Positions 9,040 through 20,007 are shown, counted from the first letter of the stretch. The stretch: DNA of 22,033 bases from a virus (IMGVR_UViG_3300034126_000013); one strand, 5' to 3'. Numbers and translations: made by a program. Notes: generated by a model not told the origin, from the sequence alone.

Positions 9040-9350
9040 TGTTTGAGCAACCCGGCGTAGCCAACATCCGTGAACGTAAAGCAGCTAACGAAGCAAGACA
9101 AAGACGTGAGCGAGAAGGTGATAACTCACCACCACGAAAAGGTACGATTGATCATTTGGTTTGGGTAGCTCGTCAAAATACAACACCCGAAGATAAAGCT
9201 AGAAGAGTGCAAGCACAGTTGGATTTCAATAAAAGAATGCGTGAGTATGAAGCTGATCGAGTGAAAAGAAATACTTGCGGTGATTGTGGTGCTGACACAC
9301 TAAACTACAGCCATTCATTTAAATGCCGTTGGAGAGGGAGTGGGTTCTAA
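9039..9350 (+). CDS. hypothetical protein with a C-terminal CxxC
   Basis: Coupled start at 9039 (MFEQPG...). Confidence 0.75.
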   Translation: MFEQPGVANIRERKAANEARQRREREGDNSPPRKGTIDHLVWVARQNTTPEDKARRVQAQLDFNKRMREYEADRVKRNTCGDCGADTLNYSHSFKCRWRGSGF

Positions 9351-10522: not shown

Positions 10523-10566
10523 CCTTCTTCGGAAGGTACAGCCTCGCTAACGCGGGGCTTCTTTTT
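10522..10566 (+). terminator. double-hairpin Rho-independent terminator ending the + strand operon
   Basis: ACCTTC-TTCG-GAAGGT (UUCG loop), then AGCCTCGC-TAAC-GCGGGGCT followed by TCTTTTT. Confidence 0.85.
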
Positions 10567-10743
10567 GCCCCAAATTCCATTCCCCCTATTTTTGACTTCC
10601 CCATTTACAACCCTTCCCCAAATCCTACTCCCCGATAATCCCTACTCGTTTAACAGGATATTCATCTAGTGGGTTTAACCGCCCGGACCCCCACCAGTAT
10701 ACCACCCGTCCAACAATCCACAAATCCGTGGACAAATATATCA

Positions 10744-10762
10744 GACCATGATAATCAACCTA
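10744..10762. promoter_or_regulatory. Fur box-like site
   Basis: GACCATGATAATCAACCTA, 13/19 to GATAATGATAATCATTATC. Confidence 0.35.
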
Positions 10763-10766
10763 CCCA

Positions 10767-10779
10767 AATCAAAACCTTG
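10767..10779 (+). promoter_or_regulatory. IHF consensus match
   Basis: AATCAA-AACC-TTG fits WATCAA-N4-TTR. Confidence 0.35.
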
Positions 10780-10807
10780 ACAAAATAGGTCGTATATGCA
10801 TATGTAG

Positions 10808-10826
10808 CGTAATGATAATCATTCAA
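10808..10826. promoter_or_regulatory. Fur box-like site
   Basis: CGTAATGATAATCATTCAA, 14 contiguous matches to the Fur 19-mer. Confidence 0.55.
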
Positions 10827-10906
10827 TGGCGTTTAACATAATACTGATTATACGCAAGGCACATACCCCTCCCGTGTAATCGTCGTATAGCTGTAATGTA
10901 GGGGAT

Positions 10907-10954
10907 TCGGTGATTGACCATCAAACGTCCGCATTGCACGAACTCTTCACCAAT
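10907..10954 (-). ncRNA. candidate small RNA / 5' hairpin motif, copy C
   Basis: Starts after promoter 10960-10988; UUGGUGA...GUCAAUCACCGA closes a 7-bp helix. Confidence 0.35.
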
Positions 10955-10959
10955 GACAC

Positions 10960-10988
10960 ATATTACCACCTTCGGGGCGGAATGACTA
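10960..10988 (-). promoter_or_regulatory. sigma70-type promoter
   Basis: TAGTCA-N17-TAATAT with an extended -10 TG. Confidence 0.5.
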
Positions 10989-11023
10989 GCTTTTTCTCTT
11001 TCTTTCCTCGGATTGCCCTATGT

Positions 11024-11042
11024 GAGAATGATAATCGTTTAT
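11024..11042. promoter_or_regulatory. Fur box-like site
   Basis: GAGAATGATAATCGTTTAT, 14/19 to the Fur consensus. Confidence 0.5.
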
Positions 11043-11059
11043 TAAATAAACAGTGTAAT

Positions 11060-11075
11060 TGTTCCATGTGGAACA
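11060..11075. promoter_or_regulatory. parS: parS-like site 1 (ParB-binding palindrome)
   Basis: TGTTCCATGTGGAACA, 15/16 to TGTTCCACGTGGAACA. Confidence 0.75.
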
Positions 11076-11392
11076 CATGAATAGATATAATTAGAGAGGG
11101 ATGCTTAACCCATCTGTCGATGTGTACGCCTATCCCTCGAATAGCCTATATGTGAATATGTCAGTATTATGTCGTAATGACGACATGCAATGATGTACTA
11201 GAATGGCTGAAAGCCATTGATTATAAGGCTTTTAGAGAAGCGTTATATTATGGGCCTAGCCCATGGTAGGGATGGTTTATTGCGTAGCAATGAGGGGTAC
11301 TGTAGGAGCTTAGGGAGGGTATGCTACCGCATACAAGAGGGATAACAGAGGGTTATTACCCTGATACTAACCTGTTTACTAAGTCTGTTAAC

Positions 11393-11412
11393 TACTGTTG
11401 TATACAACAGAA
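11393..11412. promoter_or_regulatory. LexA (SOS) box-like palindrome
   Basis: TA-CTGT-TGTATACA-ACAG-AA: a perfect 16-bp palindrome of the CTGT-N8-ACAG form. Confidence 0.55.
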
Positions 11413-11509
11413 TATATATACTTCTTTAAGAGGGGAGGGGTTCCCCTCTCTCTCCCTCTCTCTATGCTCTCTAATAGCTCACTGGGGGAGTTCCCCCAGA
11501 AGATAAGGC

Positions 11510-11539
11510 ATTATACCCCTTGACATGCGGTTCTGTCTA
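11510..11539 (-). promoter_or_regulatory. sigma70-type promoter firing into the non-coding region
   Basis: TAGACA-N18-TATAAT, followed by the hairpin CTGGGGGA/TCCCCCAG (11481-11499). Confidence 0.6.
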
Positions 11540-11558
11540 TGCTGGTCTGGGACACATA

Positions 11559-11625
11559 CGTACACAATAGCGACACTATGTCAAGCGTTTATATTCATAG
11601 GACAGAAACGTACATAAATGCGACA
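11559..11625. repeat. two copies of the 17-bp motif YGTAYAYAWWWGCGACA
   Basis: 11559-11575 CGTACACAATAGCGACA and 11609-11625 CGTACATAAATGCGACA. Confidence 0.7.
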
Positions 11626-11630
11626 CATAC

Positions 11631-11655
11631 AAAGAAACCCCTACAGAGAGGGGTT
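11631..11655 (-). terminator. Rho-independent terminator of the early operon
   Basis: AACCCCT-N6-AGGGGTT stem with a U-rich tail on the minus strand. Confidence 0.8.
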
Positions 11656-11673
11656 ATTATTGGAAGGGGTTTG

Positions 11674-11925
11674 TTATTCACCTAAACCTAAAGCGTTACG
11701 TTCTTCAACAGTGAGTTTGGCAAGGGCTTGTTTCTTGAGTTCACCAGACTTTAAGAATTCATATTCTTCTTTACTTTCATGAATAATAAATGTTCGTTTA
11801 TATACTGCACCGTGTTGACCGGCGATGGCTTTAGCGTCGTCTTTGTCCACAACGTAACATTCGTGATAGTGACGGTCGCCGCCGTCCCATAACTGCACGT
11901 CGTAGCATTCGATAATTTTAGTCAT
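11674..11925 (-). CDS. early hypothetical protein
   Basis: 83 aa; SD AAGGTG; C-terminus ALAKLTVEERNALGL. Confidence 0.85.
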   Translation of the reverse strand: MTKIIECYDVQLWDGGDRHYHECYVVDKDDAKAIAGQHGAVYKRTFIIHESKEEYEFLKSGELKKQALAKLTVEERNALGLGE

Positions 11926-11928
11926 GAT

Positions 11929-12057
11929 TTACACCTTGTTAGGAATGAGTTTAGTTCCGCAATGACCGCACCATGCAAAGCCTTGGGCTACAACTGGTTT
12001 ATGTTTGCTTGTCTTACCATGCAAGGCACCACAATTAGAACATGGTTTGTATTTCAT
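11929..12057 (-). CDS. small zinc-ribbon protein (42 aa)
   Basis: MKYKPCSNC...WCGHCGTKLIPNKV; ATGA-coupled to the upstream gene. Confidence 0.75.
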   Translation of the reverse strand: MKYKPCSNCGALHGKTSKHKPVVAQGFAWCGHCGTKLIPNKV

Positions 12058-12269
12058 TTTGTCACCTTCCGGCTACGTTTACCGGTCATTGCACGGCATT
12101 GATAATCGCACAGTTTAAAGATGCGTTTCCATTTGGCGGATACATGACCGTCTTTCAAATTACGAACCTTGCGGCCTTTCGGGAAGTCGGTACAAGCTTG
12201 TTTAGTGCAATGCACCATGATTTCTTTAGTAACAGTATTCATGATGTTATTGACATAAGAAGTTTTCAT
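12054..12269 (-). CDS. basic early hypothetical protein
   Basis: 71 aa; SD AAGGTG; directly downstream of promoter 12320-12348. Confidence 0.8.
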   Translation of the reverse strand: MKTSYVNNIMNTVTKEIMVHCTKQACTDFPKGRKVRNLKDGHVSAKWKRIFKLCDYQCRAMTGKRSRKVTK

Positions 12270-12319
12270 GGTGTCACCTTTTAGACAACTGGGGAGACAT
12301 TCCCCGTTTCGTTAAAGCG

Positions 12320-12348
12320 ATTGTACCGACTAATCAACATCGGTACAA
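12320..12348 (-). promoter_or_regulatory. sigma70-type promoter embedded in a 9-bp inverted repeat
   Basis: TTGTAC-N17-TACAAT; arms TTGTACCGA (12321-29) and TCGGTACAA (12340-48). Confidence 0.65.
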
Positions 12349-12366
12349 GAAGTATTTTAGTTTATT

Positions 12367-12630
12367 TCAAAGCCCTACCAGATTACCAAGGAAGCGCCGG
12401 GTTTCTACAGTTGCAACGATAGGACCGTTGACAACTTCCACCACAGCGTGGTCAGTCCACTCTGGGTTCCAAGGTTGAATGACGCGCTTTTCAGCAGCTT
12501 CCTTGGTTTTGAACATCCCCGAGATAACCAGTTTACCTTCGTACATGCTGACCACTACGTGGGTGATGTCAGTCTTTGCTGTTTTCTTGCTTACCGATTG
12601 ACCGTTGTGTTGAACAGTAAGAGTTTTCAT
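12367..12630 (-). CDS. early hypothetical protein
   Basis: MKTLTVQH..., 87 aa; SD AGGA; start trimmed from the track's 12702. Confidence 0.8.
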   Translation of the reverse strand: MKTLTVQHNGQSVSKKTAKTDITHVVVSMYEGKLVISGMFKTKEAAEKRVIQPWNPEWTDHAVVEVVNGPIVATVETRRFLGNLVGL

Positions 12631-12670
12631 TTCGGTAATTCCTGTTTGGTTGTTTGCTTTCGATGTGTTC

Positions 12671-12699
12671 ATTCTACTAAGGAATCTAGTCTGTGTATA
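12671..12699 (-). promoter_or_regulatory. sigma70-type promoter
   Basis: TATACA-N17-TAGAAT, ~35 nt upstream of the 12630 start. Confidence 0.5.
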
Positions 12700-12898
12700 C
12701 ATTTATTTTTAGTTTATTATGAAAATAGTTCTAAATAGTTCGGATGCTCTATAAGCTCCTATAAGCCGTTTTGGGGAGTGCTAACGATTACCCTTAATGC
12801 TGATATGTCTTTGTTCTTAAAACAGCGTACCAAGATGCGTGCCAACATTAGACAATGCTTCGGGAAAATAACGTGCCAATACTTTATTGCAGGGTCGG

Positions 12899-12926
12899 TC
12901 GGTGATTGCCTCCGATCCTCACCGGT
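12899..12926 (-). ncRNA. candidate small RNA / 5' hairpin motif, copy A (3' end unknown)
   Basis: CGGUGA-GGAUCGGAGGCAA-UCACCGA directly after promoter 12933-12962; no credible ORF before the next promoter. Confidence 0.4.
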
Positions 12927-12932
12927 AGTTGT

Positions 12933-12962
12933 ATTGTAGCAAAGAATTTAGAACGATGTCTA
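12933..12962 (-). promoter_or_regulatory. sigma70-type promoter
   Basis: TAGACA-N18-TACAAT. Confidence 0.6.
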
Positions 12963-12977
12963 CATTTATTTACAGAC

Positions 12978-13006
12978 AAAAGAAAGCCCCCAATTAAGGA
13001 GGCTTT
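12978..13006 (-). terminator. Rho-independent terminator
   Basis: AAAGCC...GGCTTT stem with a U-tract on the minus strand. Confidence 0.75.
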
Positions 13007-13019
13007 ATTGTGGGTTGGC

Positions 13020-13238
13020 TTATGATTCAATGATCTTGACAGAGAAGCCAGCTAGAACATACTTACCAATCATTTGCTCGACTTCGCGTTGCTCATACAG
13101 ACTATCTATTTGCAGGTCAATCTTTTTCGTTTCTTCGTCTACTAACCAGACGCTACCAGCATAGCCCGCCCCGCCTGCAATGTTAACCACTTGCACTTCG
13201 TTTGTGTGGTTGATGTTGCCGATAATTAGAGTTTTCAT
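13020..13238 (-). CDS. early hypothetical protein
   Basis: MKTLIIGN...; start uncertain (13238, 13286 or 13295). Confidence 0.75.
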   Translation of the reverse strand: MKTLIIGNINHTNEVQVVNIAGGAGYAGSVWLVDEETKKIDLQIDSLYEQREVEQMIGKYVLAGFSVKIIES

Positions 13239-13288
13239 GGGTGGCCCTAGATCAATGATGTTAGAGATTATACCGGTCTGGTTCATGG

Positions 13289-13546
13289 TCAGCAATCACA
13301 TTCGTCGTCTTCTTTGAATTGGCTTACGAATTCATTAACTCGTTTAGTCAAGGATTTGTGAGCCGATTCTACATCTTTCAAACGATCTTGATAATACTCA
13401 AGAGCTTTTATAAATGCTTCCCGTTCGGTCTTGGCACGCATAGCCAGATTCATACCACGTGTTTCATCATAGAGCCAGAAGCCGTCTGTGCACTCGCTTA
13501 ATGCAAGCTTACTGGTCAATACTTCGTGTTTAATTACCTTACCCAT
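13289..13546 (-). CDS. early hypothetical protein
   Basis: MGKVIKHE..., 85 aa; SD AGAGG before 13546. Confidence 0.8.
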   Translation of the reverse strand: MGKVIKHEVLTSKLALSECTDGFWLYDETRGMNLAMRAKTEREAFIKALEYYQDRLKDVESAHKSLTKRVNEFVSQFKEDDECDC

Positions 13547-13550
13547 GATA

Positions 13551-13727
13551 TTAAACCTCTTTATCATCAATGATTTGAATTTGGGAAATGATACCAAATT
13601 GCCCTTGAGACAACAACTCAATGTGTTGTTTGATTAGCTCGACTTGCTCAATGTCTAAGCAGTCTTCGTGCTTACCAGCGAACAACGCAATCTTTAAAGC
13701 TTGGATCAATTCTTGATTGTATTGCAT
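13551..13727 (-). CDS. early hypothetical protein
   Basis: MQYNQELIQALK..., 58 aa; SD AAGGTG. Confidence 0.75.
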   Translation of the reverse strand: MQYNQELIQALKIALFAGKHEDCLDIEQVELIKQHIELLSQGQFGIISQIQIIDDKEV

Positions 13728-13728
13728 G

Positions 13729-13902
13729 TTACACCTTTTCATTATGTTCTAGACGACGACCATTTTGGACGGTTACGCGTTTACCCGCAAGCGAAATAAA
13801 CGACATAGCTTCACCTTCAAACGCGTTCATTGCCTTGTAATACGTTTCAGAGAATTGATCGTCTAACTGTTTACGTAGCTTGCGAAGTTGAAAGCGGTTC
13901 AT
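13729..13902 (-). CDS. early hypothetical protein (57 aa; not in the track)
   Basis: MNRFQLRKLRKQLDDQFSE...HNEKV; SD AAGGGG. Confidence 0.75.
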   Translation of the reverse strand: MNRFQLRKLRKQLDDQFSETYYKAMNAFEGEAMSFISLAGKRVTVQNGRRLEHNEKV

Positions 13903-13914
13903 GTCGTTAACCCC

Positions 13915-14223
13915 TTACAAGCAAAATTTGTATTTATCAGAAATTGAATCAAACTCAGGATCGATATCGCATTCGTCTTCATCGATGATAATGGCTTCAA
14001 CGAAGTATTCCCATTCAGGACCGAAGCGAGACGATATTTGGTTATCCGTGTTGAAAGCGCGAATATCAGTAACATCATCTGCATCCAGTTCACCGCATAC
14101 ACGTTCAATGTAATCAGCAACATCGATTTGAGCAACTTCTACACGACCGCATTCAACAAACCAAGCATTGTGACCGATTACAAAGTCAGTACCAGTTTTA
14201 ACGATTTTGATTTCTACGATCAT
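13915..14223 (-). CDS. acidic early hypothetical protein
   Basis: MIVEIKIV..., 102 aa; downstream of promoter 14273-14300. Confidence 0.8.
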   Translation of the reverse strand: MIVEIKIVKTGTDFVIGHNAWFVECGRVEVAQIDVADYIERVCGELDADDVTDIRAFNTDNQISSRFGPEWEYFVEAIIIDEDECDIDPEFDSISDKYKFCL

Positions 14224-14272
14224 GATAAGTGCCTTTACAAAAGTGGTTGGCTGAATGCCTTTCATGTGGTCC

Positions 14273-14300
14273 ATTCTACACTCTTTAGACAACAGGTCAA
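14273..14300 (-). promoter_or_regulatory. early promoter (16-bp spacer class, TCTAAA in spacer)
   Basis: TTGACC-TGTTGTCTAAAGAGTG-TAGAAT. Confidence 0.8.
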
Positions 14301-14309
14301 GCTTTAAAA

Positions 14310-14348
14310 CGTATATATTTGCGACATTGAATGTATATAAATGCGACA
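14310..14348. repeat. two copies of the 17-bp motif YGTAYAYAWWWGCGACA, 22 bp apart
   Basis: 14310-14326 CGTATATATTTGCGACA and 14332-14348 TGTATATAAATGCGACA. Confidence 0.7.
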
Positions 14349-14353
14349 TAGAG

Positions 14354-14374
14354 AAAAGCCCCGACTAGCGGGGC
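14354..14374 (-). terminator. Rho-independent terminator
   Basis: GCCCCG-ACTAG-CGGGGC with AAAA on the + strand (U-tract on minus). Confidence 0.8.
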
Positions 14375-14379
14375 GATTG

Positions 14380-14395
14380 TGTTTCACGTGGAACA
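14380..14395. promoter_or_regulatory. parS: parS-like site 2
   Basis: TGTTTCACGTGGAACA, 15/16 to both TGTTTCACGTGAAACA and TGTTCCACGTGGAACA. Confidence 0.85.
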
Positions 14396-14396
14396 T

Positions 14397-14699
14397 TTAC
14401 TTATCATGATGCCAGTCAATAATAGTTTTGACATGCTGTTCTGTTGTAAAGGTGTAATCAGTAAATACCTGAGTACCACACAAGCCGAATGCATACCAGT
14501 TTGATAGACGACCTTTCATGATTTCAATCTGTCGATAAACCGATATCGATTTGACTAATTCTGCACCGTTGTCTGTAACCCATTTATCAAGCTTTGCCAA
14601 TGTAGGGAATTTGTCGGGAACTTGATTCCCTTTCTGTTCACCAGTGAGAAAGCGTAGCTTATGAAAGTCGCCGTATTTCTCACGCTTTACCAGACTCAC
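14397..14699 (-). CDS. early hypothetical protein
   Basis: 100 aa; coupled to the upstream ORF. Confidence 0.8.
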   Translation of the reverse strand: MSLVKREKYGDFHKLRFLTGEQKGNQVPDKFPTLAKLDKWVTDNGAELVKSISVYRQIEIMKGRLSNWYAFGLCGTQVFTDYTFTTEQHVKTIIDWHHDK

Positions 14700-14887
14700 A
14701 AGCTTGATTCCTTTTTCATTGTGTCGATTAGCTTTGTTACATGATCCGCATATACATAACCCGGCGTTGGTTCAACAAGGGTTTTCAATCGTTCATGTGC
14801 AGCGGTTAAACGCGTTGGTGTGTCGTGTCCTGCATCATACATCATCCGCAATGCAAAGCGTTGGGATACTGCGATTTTATCAGCCAT
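14696..14887 (-). CDS. early hypothetical protein
   Basis: 63 aa; SD AAGGTG. Confidence 0.8.
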   Translation of the reverse strand: MADKIAVSQRFALRMMYDAGHDTPTRLTAAHERLKTLVEPTPGYVYADHVTKLIDTMKKESSL

Positions 14888-14896
14888 GATACACCT

Positions 14897-14971
14897 TTAG
14901 ATAACGTTTACAACAGACCAAACCGCAATACTTACAAGTGTAGCCAATGAAGCGATAAATGCGATTTTCAT
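14897..14971 (-). CDS. 24-aa hydrophobic peptide
   Basis: MKIAFIASLATLVSIAVWSVVNVI; SD GAGG; first gene after promoter 15002-15029. Confidence 0.65.
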   Translation of the reverse strand: MKIAFIASLATLVSIAVWSVVNVI

Positions 14972-15001
14972 GATGTAGCCTCGATTTGTTTGGTGTTGTC
15001 C

Positions 15002-15029
15002 ATTCTACAGGAATAAACCATATGGTCAA
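15002..15029 (-). promoter_or_regulatory. early promoter (16-bp spacer class)
   Basis: TTGACC-N16-TAGAAT. Confidence 0.8.
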
Positions 15030-15211
15030 GACATTATTTTAACTATTTCGTTATTCAAAGCAAGTAAAAGCTCGGATGAGCAATAGATGCTAATTGGTGC
15101 AAGAACAAGGTATTGCCATGTGCGTGTTACAATACCATAAACGATAGCAAGGATTCCAGAACTGAATAGAATATAGAGAACGAAAGTACAAAGACTAATA
15201 AGTGACATCAT
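15026..15211 (-). CDS. small membrane protein (two hydrophobic segments)
   Basis: 61 aa, strongly hydrophobic. Confidence 0.75.
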   Translation of the reverse strand: MMSLISLCTFVLYILFSSGILAIVYGIVTRTWQYLVLAPISIYCSSELLLALNNEIVKIMS

Positions 15212-15260
15212 GATGTAAAACCTGATTTTAGTAATGGGTTATTTGCCTTTCTTGTCACTC

Positions 15261-15288
15261 ATTCTACAGACTTTAAAGAGTAGGTCAA
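15261..15288 (-). promoter_or_regulatory. early promoter (16-bp spacer class)
   Basis: TTGACC-N16-TAGAAT; TTTAAA variant at the TCTAAA position. Confidence 0.8.
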
Positions 15289-15321
15289 CAAGTATTTTCA
15301 TTTATTGTTGGCATGATCTTT

Positions 15322-15394
15322 GATGCGAAGGTTTCGTATTACCAGATAGTCAGGCTCCTTCGGTGATTGTCTCGTGTCTGACTTCGCACCGTGT
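15322..15394 (-). ncRNA. candidate structured small RNA, copy B
   Basis: Starts after the TAGAAT at 15401-06. It has CGGUG/CACCG, GGUGCGAAG/CUUCGCAUC and AGUCAG/CUGACU pairings and no evident ORF. Confidence 0.4.
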
Positions 15395-15405
15395 AAAACT
15401 ATTCT

Positions 15406-15449
15406 ACAGGAAGCGTAAAGGTTCCACGTGGAACCTTTACGCTTCCTGT
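15406..15449. repeat. perfect 44-bp palindrome
   Basis: ACAGGAAGCGTAAAGGTTCCAC|GTGGAACCTTTACGCTTCCTGT. Confidence 0.95.
15420..15435. promoter_or_regulatory. parS: parS-like site 3
   Basis: GGTTCCACGTGGAACC; central 14 bp identical to TGTTCCACGTGGAACA. Confidence 0.8.
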
Positions 15450-16762: not shown

Positions 16763-16811
16763 TTTTATTATTCCTTATCAGGAGAGAACCATTTCTCTCC
16801 TCTTGATACCC

Positions 16812-19314: not shown

Positions 19315-19362
19315 GATCTTTCTCTAGGTTGTGGGAGAGAAAATCTCTCCCTTGTGTGACTG

Positions 19363-19716: not shown

Positions 19717-19770
19717 GTTCTTAATCTCTTCTGTTATGTGAGAGAGGTTTTCCTCTCTCTTGTGTGGTTG

Positions 19771-19958: not shown

Positions 19959-20007
19959 CTGTCTAACCCTTCTTTGTGTCCGGGGTGTTTCCCCTTTCTT
20001 GACGCCC

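Follow-up and report, generated by a model that had tools for sequence, protein, structure and literature searches.

Of three sites with a common 10-mer in a viral genome fragment, two hold a non-coding promoter-leader cassette that also occurs in Pseudomonas phages

The analysed window, a 22,033-nt stretch of viral DNA (IMGVR_UViG_3300034126_000013), carries one 10-mer at three minus-strand, promoter-proximal sites, here termed A, B and C, and we find that these three sites belong to two different inherited elements. Sites A and B are paralogues, each a copy of a modular cassette of promoter plus leader that is non-coding and shared with Pseudomonas phages, and site C is a conserved RNA hairpin of which both helices are kept via compensatory change in six related phages. 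Because the elements are found in relatives, they are inherited features and not products of chance. The reading of a first-pass annotation, in which the sites form "one sRNA family", is attractive but overstated and is corrected here.

On the plus strand of the whole window, the 10-mer TCGGTGATTG occurs exactly three times, at 10907 (site C), 12899 (site A) and 15360 (site B), with the minus strand reading CAATCACCGA at all three sites; the sole copy with one mismatch is found at 9277. The ORF map places all three copies between credible genes, and the six small ORFs that overlap them gave no PHROG match. Each copy lies 24–44 nt downstream of a sigma-70-type -10 box on the minus strand, and a complementary GGTG stands 1–3 nt past the predicted start: the exact copies, the ORF map and the hexamers thus confirm what the first-pass annotation had observed. 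Three copies of one 10-mer, taken alone, are not rare in this window, where 55 different 10-mers reach three or more copies (dinucleotide shuffles give 15.7 ± 3.7), the majority of them promoter words. The joint pattern of same strand, intergenic location, promoter proximity and upstream complement is uncommon: an upstream complement accompanies every copy for 5 of 112 strand-specific repeated 10-mers, and one of these five is a terminator word.

Transcription starts at all three sites are predicted from hexamers. The promoter of site A (12933–12962, minus strand), identified by promoter scan and by reading the sequence, comprises TAGACA, an 18-bp spacer and TACAAT (12933–12938) with TG, and lies directly behind a terminator at 12983–13006. 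At site B, the sequence reads a TG-extended TAGAAT (15401–15406, minus strand) without a -35 element, and eight homologues likewise have a terminator or palindrome ahead of a -10 box. In case of site C, TAATAT (10960–10965, minus strand) is preceded by TGG and by a -35-like TAGTCA 17 bp upstream (10983–10988, minus strand), a position that is TAGACA in relatives; this promoter, the start region and the GGTG are conserved in six relatives and in vB_PpS_SYP. The distance from hexamer to GGTG is 8 nt (C), 9 nt (A) and 10 nt (B), and with starts predicted at ~10954 (C), ~12926 (A) and ~15394 (B) the RNAs would therefore have just 1–3 unpaired 5′ bases. GGUG is retained right behind the start in every homologue of all three types. 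As for the opposite end, no minus-strand intrinsic terminator was found between any of the three sites and its next promoter, and no terminal hairpin ahead of a U-run appears in the site A fold: the proposal that these are discrete small RNAs is not supported, with the proviso that RNA 3′ ends may still come from processing.

Site C forms a two-helix stem-loop (10907–10953, minus strand) according to RNAalifold on six orthologues, with an outer helix in which 10947–10953 pairs with 10907–10913 and an inner helix, 100% paired among the orthologues, in which 10937–10943 pairs with 10927–10933. Compensatory changes are present at 5 of the 14 pairs and 90.5% of cells are paired, compared to 26–48% in controls with slid partners; energy minimisation of the single sequence gives the two-helix fold as well. 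R1, a covariance model of the six orthologues, detects exactly one copy per genome in six genomes (E<1e-15). The exact 10-mer is itself not conserved in these orthologues, with just UCACC or wobble equivalents remaining. The stem-loop heads a long ORF-less transcript within a conserved 1.1-kb convergent junction, and the rest of this transcript (10545–10906, minus strand) aligns in six phages as conserved sequence blocks, some invariant, with little supported structure. Another hairpin is seen at 11482–11499 of the same junction. Folding energies do not set the sites apart from shuffled sequence: none of the 50-nt 5′ segments of A, B and C folds better than its shuffles (z = -0.6 to -0.8), and longer segments of the three sites gave z = +1.4, -0.8 and +0.95.

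Site A is a conserved non-coding element (12800–12926, minus strand) that shows 94% identity over 120 nt to G001, the nearest full-length relative, against a mean of 74.6%, and ranks second of 8049 windows of 120 nt in this comparison; the high identity concerns two genomes only and could partly reflect recent exchange. Conservation starts at the predicted +1, whilst the promoter spacer has diverged, and homologues are found in G002, G003, SYP and two metagenome contigs. The element contains two TTGGCACG boxes (12872–12879 and 12838–12845) and a variant box, TTGGTACG (12826–12833), all on the minus strand, and no structure is conserved in its 3′ part. The hairpin proposed for this site (12900–12924, minus strand; CGGUGA at 12919–12924 pairing with UCACCG at 12900–12905 around a 13-nt loop) is present in the sequence, but the minimum-energy structure uses a different, mutually exclusive stem, in which GGAUCGG pairs with bases immediately 3′ of the 10-mer, and this competing stem is perfect in G001. 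Only two sequences carry the proposed stem, and they are identical in the 5′ stem region.

The leader module at site B (15300–15394, minus strand) combines the GGTG with a core of degenerate box plus GACAAWC and with a purine-rich tract, AAGGAG, and continues into the next promoter at 15261–15288. Here, energy minimisation of the single sequence does give the proposed stem (15361–15391, minus strand; CGGUG at 15387–15391 with CACCG at 15361–15365; -9 kcal/mol, z = -0.56). In an alignment of eight homologues, pairing extends to 72.9% of cells with 0 compensatory pairs, the stem has lost its G-C base in 4–5 of the eight and the 10-mer is not kept in half; the absence of the stem from about half of the homologues argues against an essential role for it at B. 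Among homologues, compensatory changes preserve the GGUG/CACC helix at C, and none do so at B. An HMM of the B type finds one copy per related genome (E 1e-12 to 1e-17), and the orthologues diverge rapidly outside a ~45-nt core. A 174-aa ORF of G004 has the B module as its 5′ UTR, which leads into it via AAGGAGG-N4-ATG; in the window the AAGGAG tract is kept but no start codon follows. These properties of B would suit an explanation in which A and B are decaying remnants of the promoters and 5′ UTRs of lost genes, kept only for the help that their promoters give to downstream expression, with the shared word due to descent and chance (chance alone would produce about 16 10-mers with three copies). 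We consider this unlikely, given that few stretches of the region are as conserved as A, that the box core is identical between phages whose proteins are just ~50% identical and that compensatory evolution is seen in C.

Taken together, A and B share the order terminator, sigma-70 promoter, leader of ~100–130 nt and next early promoter. The conserved features of the leader are linear, namely one to four TTGGCACG boxes, the GACAAWC core and the purine-rich tract, and the stem is lineage-specific. The cassette is present in at least 10 related phages, with homologues of A and B in G001, G002, G003, G004, phiPto-bp6g, vB_PpS_SYP and two metagenome contigs; in G002 and G003 a B-type 5′ part is fused to an A-type 3′ part, and in four genomes the homologues have an identical length of 117 nt without codon periodicity. 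Distant versions occur in 128 Pakpunavirus records and phiPMW, and also in vB_PpS_SYP, with weak homology between window B and the Pakpunavirus cassette (nhmmer E = 0.005). The PAK_P4 record (KC862300) annotates a "putative antisense RNA PAK_P4as16" and "promoter_03" over the cassette based on RNA-seq (Blasdel et al. 2017, PMC5563952), and according to this record the cassette strand is transcribed in infected cells. As in the window, the Pakpunavirus version begins with a TG-extended sigma-70 promoter, followed by a leader sharing the ...GCACCGGAGAYAAACA... core, a purine-rich tract and GCCTG, and then by an AT-rich stretch, a TTGGCAYG box and a second sigma-70 promoter. Unlike window B, it has no GGUG/CACC stem, contains a perfect -12 TTGCA in its box, faces away from the neighbouring genes and lies beside iteron-like repeats.

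It could be argued that the transcripts encode leaderless or GTG-started micro-peptides, with the word read as Asn-His-Arg and a 38-codon hydrophobic peptide in relatives as an example. Short in-frame ORFs do start from GTG or ATG of the GGTG region (12 codons at A, 16 codons at B), and a frame of 38–39 codons is open and free of indels in G002, G003 and two metagenome contigs; however, variable columns are distributed 14/14/12 by codon position, without an excess at the third. G003 and SYP1 have ACG in place of the start codon, SYP1 also has an in-frame stop, box spacing differs by 34, 36 and 26 nt among homologues and so shifts the frame, nucleotide blocks are identical regardless of frame and the C stems vary by paired substitutions. 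With no coding signal in the homologues, several of which have lost starts or suffered frame-shifting indels, peptides are a highly improbable explanation.

According to the first-pass annotation, A, B and C would be one trans-acting early sRNA family whose determinant, either the hairpin or the CAAUCACCGA word, serves as protein decoy or antisense seed. This would account for three exact 10-mers at equivalent positions behind promoters, for the pairing retained through U.G in site C, for the universally retained GGUG and for the pair beside it switching from A-U to U-A or G.U in some homologues, but cross-searches fail to unite the sites under a common GGUG...CAAUCACCGA hairpin: R1 detects only C-type copies and not A or B at E≤10, and the B HMM recovers eight B homologues but has no match to A or C. 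The 10-mer is unconserved in the C orthologues and in half of the B homologues, covariation is lacking in B, terminators are absent and the B module in G004 is simply the 5′ UTR of a gene, so that we judge a single family to be improbable. What is borne out is that ORF-less, promoter-proximal non-coding elements, conserved in relatives, are present at all sites; that their motif had not been recognised agrees with a permissive cmscan of the whole window against Rfam 15, which returned no match at E≤1. Small non-coding RNAs are known from a related Pseudomonas myophage group: ncRNA1 and ncRNA2 of PAK_P3 are late, processed 3′ UTRs without starts of their own, located among tRNA genes (PMC4933390, PMC10914365), unlike A, B and C, which are promoter-proximal, in the early region and without a tRNA nearby.

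The explanation that we favour, and to which we give an even chance, is that the sites provide 5′-stem-capped non-coding early leaders, with C as an RNA stem-loop and A and B as a box cassette. The 10-mers would form the 3′ arm of a short stem closing on GGUG 1–3 nt past predicted sigma-70-type starts, which would place the stems at the extreme 5′ end of untranslated early RNAs, where they may shield primary transcripts from 5′-end-dependent decay. In E. coli, the hairpin of the ompA 5′ UTR blocks 5′-end-dependent RNase E attack. The stems of A, B and C likewise begin within 1–3 nt of the predicted 5′ end, a geometry that fits a 5′ stabiliser if transcription starts 7 nt past the -10 box; different from ompA-type stabilisers, no translated gene lies directly downstream and a competing stem is predicted in A. 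Without a terminator, the RNAs would be leaders reading into downstream early genes with the boxes aboard, and we infer that these boxes form the functional payload of A and B, the candidate ligands being an RNA-binding factor from host or phage, or sigma-54 holoenzyme on DNA. Stem-loops right behind early promoters in several copies per genome are reminiscent of lambdoid elements (lambda nut boxA/boxB, HK022 put), but A, B and C bear no sequence or size resemblance to put and have no terminators within their units to suggest a need for antitermination. Matches to the rrn boxA word number 10, against 9.5 expected by chance, with none near A, B or C.

The A/B boxes could also act at the DNA level, with the RNA then being incidental; the first-pass annotation, too, had named a conserved DNA operator right behind the start as an alternative. 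The -24/-12 consensus of sigma-54 is TGGCACG-N4-TTGCW, and the TTGGCACG boxes resemble its -24 element, being an exact match over 8 nt with a T always 4 nt on. A, B and their relatives might hence be DNA elements that bind the host sigma-54 holoenzyme, either as activator-dependent promoters behind a constitutive early promoter or as stable closed complexes gating read-through, and the RNA stem would be a by-product. In relatives, the middle box reads TTGGCAYG-N4-TAGCAT, and the Pakpunavirus, phiPMW and SYP version TTGGCAYG-N4-TTGCAA: two conserved boxes with a variable spacer between them are what characterises a -24/-12 promoter. RNA structure is absent from the conserved 3′ part of A, and the identical 117-nt length without codon periodicity fits a spacing constraint. 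However, when GG at -24 and GC at -12, 10 bp apart, are sought within the consensus, the full feature is found in relatives only: both A boxes of the window lack the -12 GC despite a full -24, with TTTCC (12863–12878) and TTGGT (12829–12844) in its place. An apparent -12 TTGG in the last box was rejected as the beginning of a further TTGGYACG repeat. Moreover, B has only a degenerate box and C none, full-consensus matches are not enriched in the window (6 against 3.3 expected), nor is TTGGCACG genome-wide in relatives, no upstream enhancer dyad was identified and no activator gene (Sigma54_activat, PF00158) was found in the complete relative G001, although a host AAA+ enhancer-binding activator could serve the boxes. 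Precedent for sigma-54 (RpoN) use exists in Pseudomonas phage YuA (Ceyssens et al. 2008, as cited in PMC10914365). Overall, we regard the DNA-level explanation as possible but doubtful.

Early ncRNAs and leaders of virulent phages are poorly catalogued, and the window yields one covariation-backed stem-loop (C) as well as one non-coding cassette with strong conservation (A/B), of which Pakpunavirus, therapy phages with existing transcriptome data, carry distant versions. Binding of the TTGGCACG boxes by sigma-54 holoenzyme or a different host factor, should it occur, would represent a new coupling of early expression to host physiology; otherwise, the elements would be ordinary stabilised leaders. 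Rather speculatively, the A/B cassette may, together with its relatives in Pakpunavirus, phiPMW and SYP, constitute an undescribed regulatory class, in which TTGGCACG arrays directly behind an early sigma-70 promoter recruit host sigma-54 holoenzyme to the genome as it enters or titrate a host factor as a multi-site RNA, with C and the 11482–11499 hairpin as further structured early ncRNAs of one junction. If this were true, the TTGGCACG arrays would let these phages switch according to host state within the first minutes of infection.

The plus-strand genes of the window extend to 10522, in a block that includes an ATP-dependent DNA ligase, a NinI-like phosphatase and an HNH endonuclease, whilst the early genes occupy the minus strand between 22033 and 11674; the convergent blocks meet at an ORF-less junction of ~1.1 kb. 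Pseudomonas myophages with genomes of 90–107 kb (the phiPsa374/KIL group, phiPMW, vB_PpS_SYP and phiPto-bp6g among them) encode proteins with 41–54% identity to those of the window, and a megablast search of the phage collection identified no close DNA relative, the sole match being a 32-nt terminator. The junction and the three sites analysed here could be traced in phiPto-bp6g, four complete, uncultured phage genomes of ~100–107 kb (G001–G004), vB_PpS_SYP (SYP) and two metagenome contigs. The phage of the window itself seems to be uncultured, whereas vB_PpS_SYP and Pakpunavirus phages are in culture. The junction (10545–11640) exhibits ~72–74% DNA identity to relatives, as compared to 41–54% at the protein level; it contains invariant blocks and three GATTATCAT-type (Fur-box-like) words, with five GGGGA(A) repeats at 11–17 nt spacing near 10560–10650, and may represent an origin or packaging region.

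The first-pass annotation had reported a 10-mer shared by sites A (12899–12908), B (15360–15369) and C (10907–10916), and had interpreted the transcripts predicted to start nearby (~12926, ~15394 and ~10954, respectively) as one family of early small RNAs closed by a GGUG...10-mer hairpin. Its coordinates and sequence facts are right: the 10-mer occurs exactly three times, always on the same strand and outside credible genes (the overlapping ORFs have no PHROG match), and each minus-strand copy is preceded by a -10-like hexamer, with GGTG 8, 9 or 10 nt past the hexamer. Given a predicted start 7 nt after the hexamer, 1–3 unpaired bases would therefore lie 5' of the stem. Three-copy 10-mers are unremarkable alone (55 observed against ~16 expected, mostly promoter words); the joint configuration of strand, place, promoter and complement is uncommon. 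The minus-strand promoters of A and C exhibit the -35 elements TAGACA (18 bp spacing) and TAGTCA (17 bp spacing; TAGACA in relatives), and that of B combines a TG-extended TAGAAT -10 box with a 30-bp perfect palindrome (15411–15440) at the place of the -35 element. The sequence at the centre of this palindrome, GTTCCACGTGGAAC, matches the core of chromosomal parS, and words resembling it are found in the window at 14385–14394 and ~11055–11072. Resembling words also occur in relatives: in G001 and G004 they lie directly 5' of the terminator and promoter of the B-type cassettes, and in phiPto-bp6g where the junction begins. At 16780–16810, 19330–19360, 19740–19770 and 19975–20005, canonical early promoters (TTGACN, 16 bp, TAGAAT) are each followed by a short GA-rich 5' UTR hairpin ~8–10 nt downstream of the predicted start, and as this arrangement recurs, the early mRNAs of this phage seem generally to carry hairpins in their leaders.

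Coding potential was considered for short GTG/ATG frames and for a frame of 38–39 codons, the latter open in four relatives; frames through the 10-mer would read Asn-His-Arg. These were rejected for want of codon periodicity (substitutions by codon position 14/14/12), starts lost in two homologues and box spacings that differ by non-multiples of three. Neighbouring small genes gave no Pfam match, and no boxA-like word was found near the three sites. Equivalence to ncRNA1/2 of PAK_P3 was also excluded, since those are late, processed RNAs, unlike the elements in the window.

The predicted RNAs of A, B and C fold no better than shuffled sequence; evidence for structure thus comes from covariation, present only for C and for a further hairpin at 11482–11499. 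The orthologues of C establish it as a genuine RNA structure: all six keep an inner hairpin and an outer helix, in which GGUGR pairs with YCACC or wobble equivalents, and the sequence of the inner hairpin is wholly replaced between lineages with retention of pairing. RNAalifold returned 14 pairs, five of these with compensatory changes, and 90.5% of alignment cells are paired (100% in the inner helix) as compared to 26–48% when the partners are slid. These orthologues do not retain the exact 10-mer. A covariance model built from them identified one copy per genome (E<1e-15), together with a weak, shortened version behind the conserved promoter in SYP. Alignment folding of the transcript downstream of C revealed invariant sequence blocks and few supported helices, and no minus-strand terminator was found there. 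The hairpin at 11482–11499, absent from the first-pass annotation, lies past another promoter of the window (11482–11539; TAGACA, 18 bp, TATAAT) in an ORF-less, promoter-proximal position: its 7-bp stem, which carries a tetraloop, differs in sequence in five phages and remains fully paired.

A and B are versions of a single modular cassette comprising a terminator, a sigma-70 promoter, a leader of ~100–130 nt and the next early promoter. Each related genome has a single B-type module, except SYP with two (SYP1 and SYP2); all lie behind a terminator and a -10 box extended by TG, and share GGTG, a purine-rich tract and a (T)TGGCACG box to which GACAAWC is fused. Four copies (B of the window, SYP1, SYP2 and one from a metagenome) carry intact the stem proposed in the first-pass annotation; G002 has part of it, and five other homologues lack it. 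In G004 (L078:8570–9153) the B-type module leads directly to a 174-aa ORF that lacks any Pfam match and is preceded by a strong ribosome-binding site, and can thus serve as an ordinary 5' UTR. A jumbo-phage contig of 485 kb (L049 and L064; G005:8111–8124) carries TGTAGAAT, GGTGG and an exact 15-nt box-plus-core word in B-type module order, and may hold a distant cassette member in an unrelated genome type.

Over 120 nt, site A and G001 share 94% identity, the background being 74.6% (rank 2 of 8049 windows), with conservation beginning at the predicted +1 and the promoter spacer diverged. Homologues of the 3' part of A are found in G002, G003, SYP2 and two metagenome contigs, where each is joined to a B-type 5' part, and A and B are thus paralogous mosaics. 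This 3' part bears two to four TTGGCACG or TTGGYACG boxes, and no conserved secondary structure was found in it. The minimum-energy fold of A contains a stem other than that of the first-pass annotation, mutually exclusive with it and perfect in G001; an H-type pseudoknot formed from both stems is, by our reasoning, ruled out by connecting loops of 0 nt and 1 nt. A metagenome scan with the A-type 3' end gave 19 matches, two of them true members, and both lack the window-type A stem. Box 2 of A (12835–12845) is perfectly complementary over 11 nt to 13430–13440 in the mRNA of the upstream gene 13289–13621; the complement is partly kept in G002, and its absence from G001 led us to reject an antisense target site and to regard the match as probably due to chance.

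Thus, whilst the promoter-anchored non-coding elements are real and conserved, the hairpin family proposed to unite them is unsupported: neither the covariance model of C nor an HMM of B links the three sites. Compensatory change preserves pairing in C; in B, eight aligned homologues reveal none. As read from these comparisons, C is a structured 5' stem-loop, and A and B represent a conserved cassette distinct from it, where the stem appears optional and the linear boxes appear to be what selection keeps.

The boxes TTGGCACG equal the -24 element of sigma-54 promoters, and hence could instead be sigma-54 sites: TAGCAT is conserved at the -12 position of the middle box in relatives, and a distant cassette version in 128 Pakpunavirus records, phiPMW and SYP exhibits TTGGCAYG-N4-TTGCAA with variable spacer. 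This distant version is annotated in the PAK_P4 record with a promoter and an ncRNA derived from RNA-seq. However, the boxes of the window itself lack the -12 GC, neither sigma-54 consensus matches in the window nor TTGGCACG across the genomes of relatives are enriched, and no sigma-54 activator gene was found in the complete relative G001, and we therefore retain this explanation only as a rival to the leader interpretation. Pakpunavirus (PA10, PAK_P4), phiPMW and SYP all retain near-perfect predicted -24/-12 promoters in which the spacer varies (L027:2525–2545, L081:1586–1602, L082:2581–2597 and L026:11957–11973). Downstream of each lie ATTGCA, GTGCCA in inverted orientation and a second sigma-70 promoter, which in PA10 and PAK_P4 drives a structured RNA of ~140 nt adjoining iteron-like GCTAAC repeats.

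The tRNA/tmRNA scan of the window gave no match, nor did the Rfam search suggested in the first-pass annotation (E≤1), and no like element was found in Rfam or in the publications consulted on PAK_P3, PAK_P4, phiPMW or the ONT-cappable-seq survey. The most likely role of the A, B and C RNAs is that of 5'-stem-capped, untranslated early leaders, which would read into the next operon.
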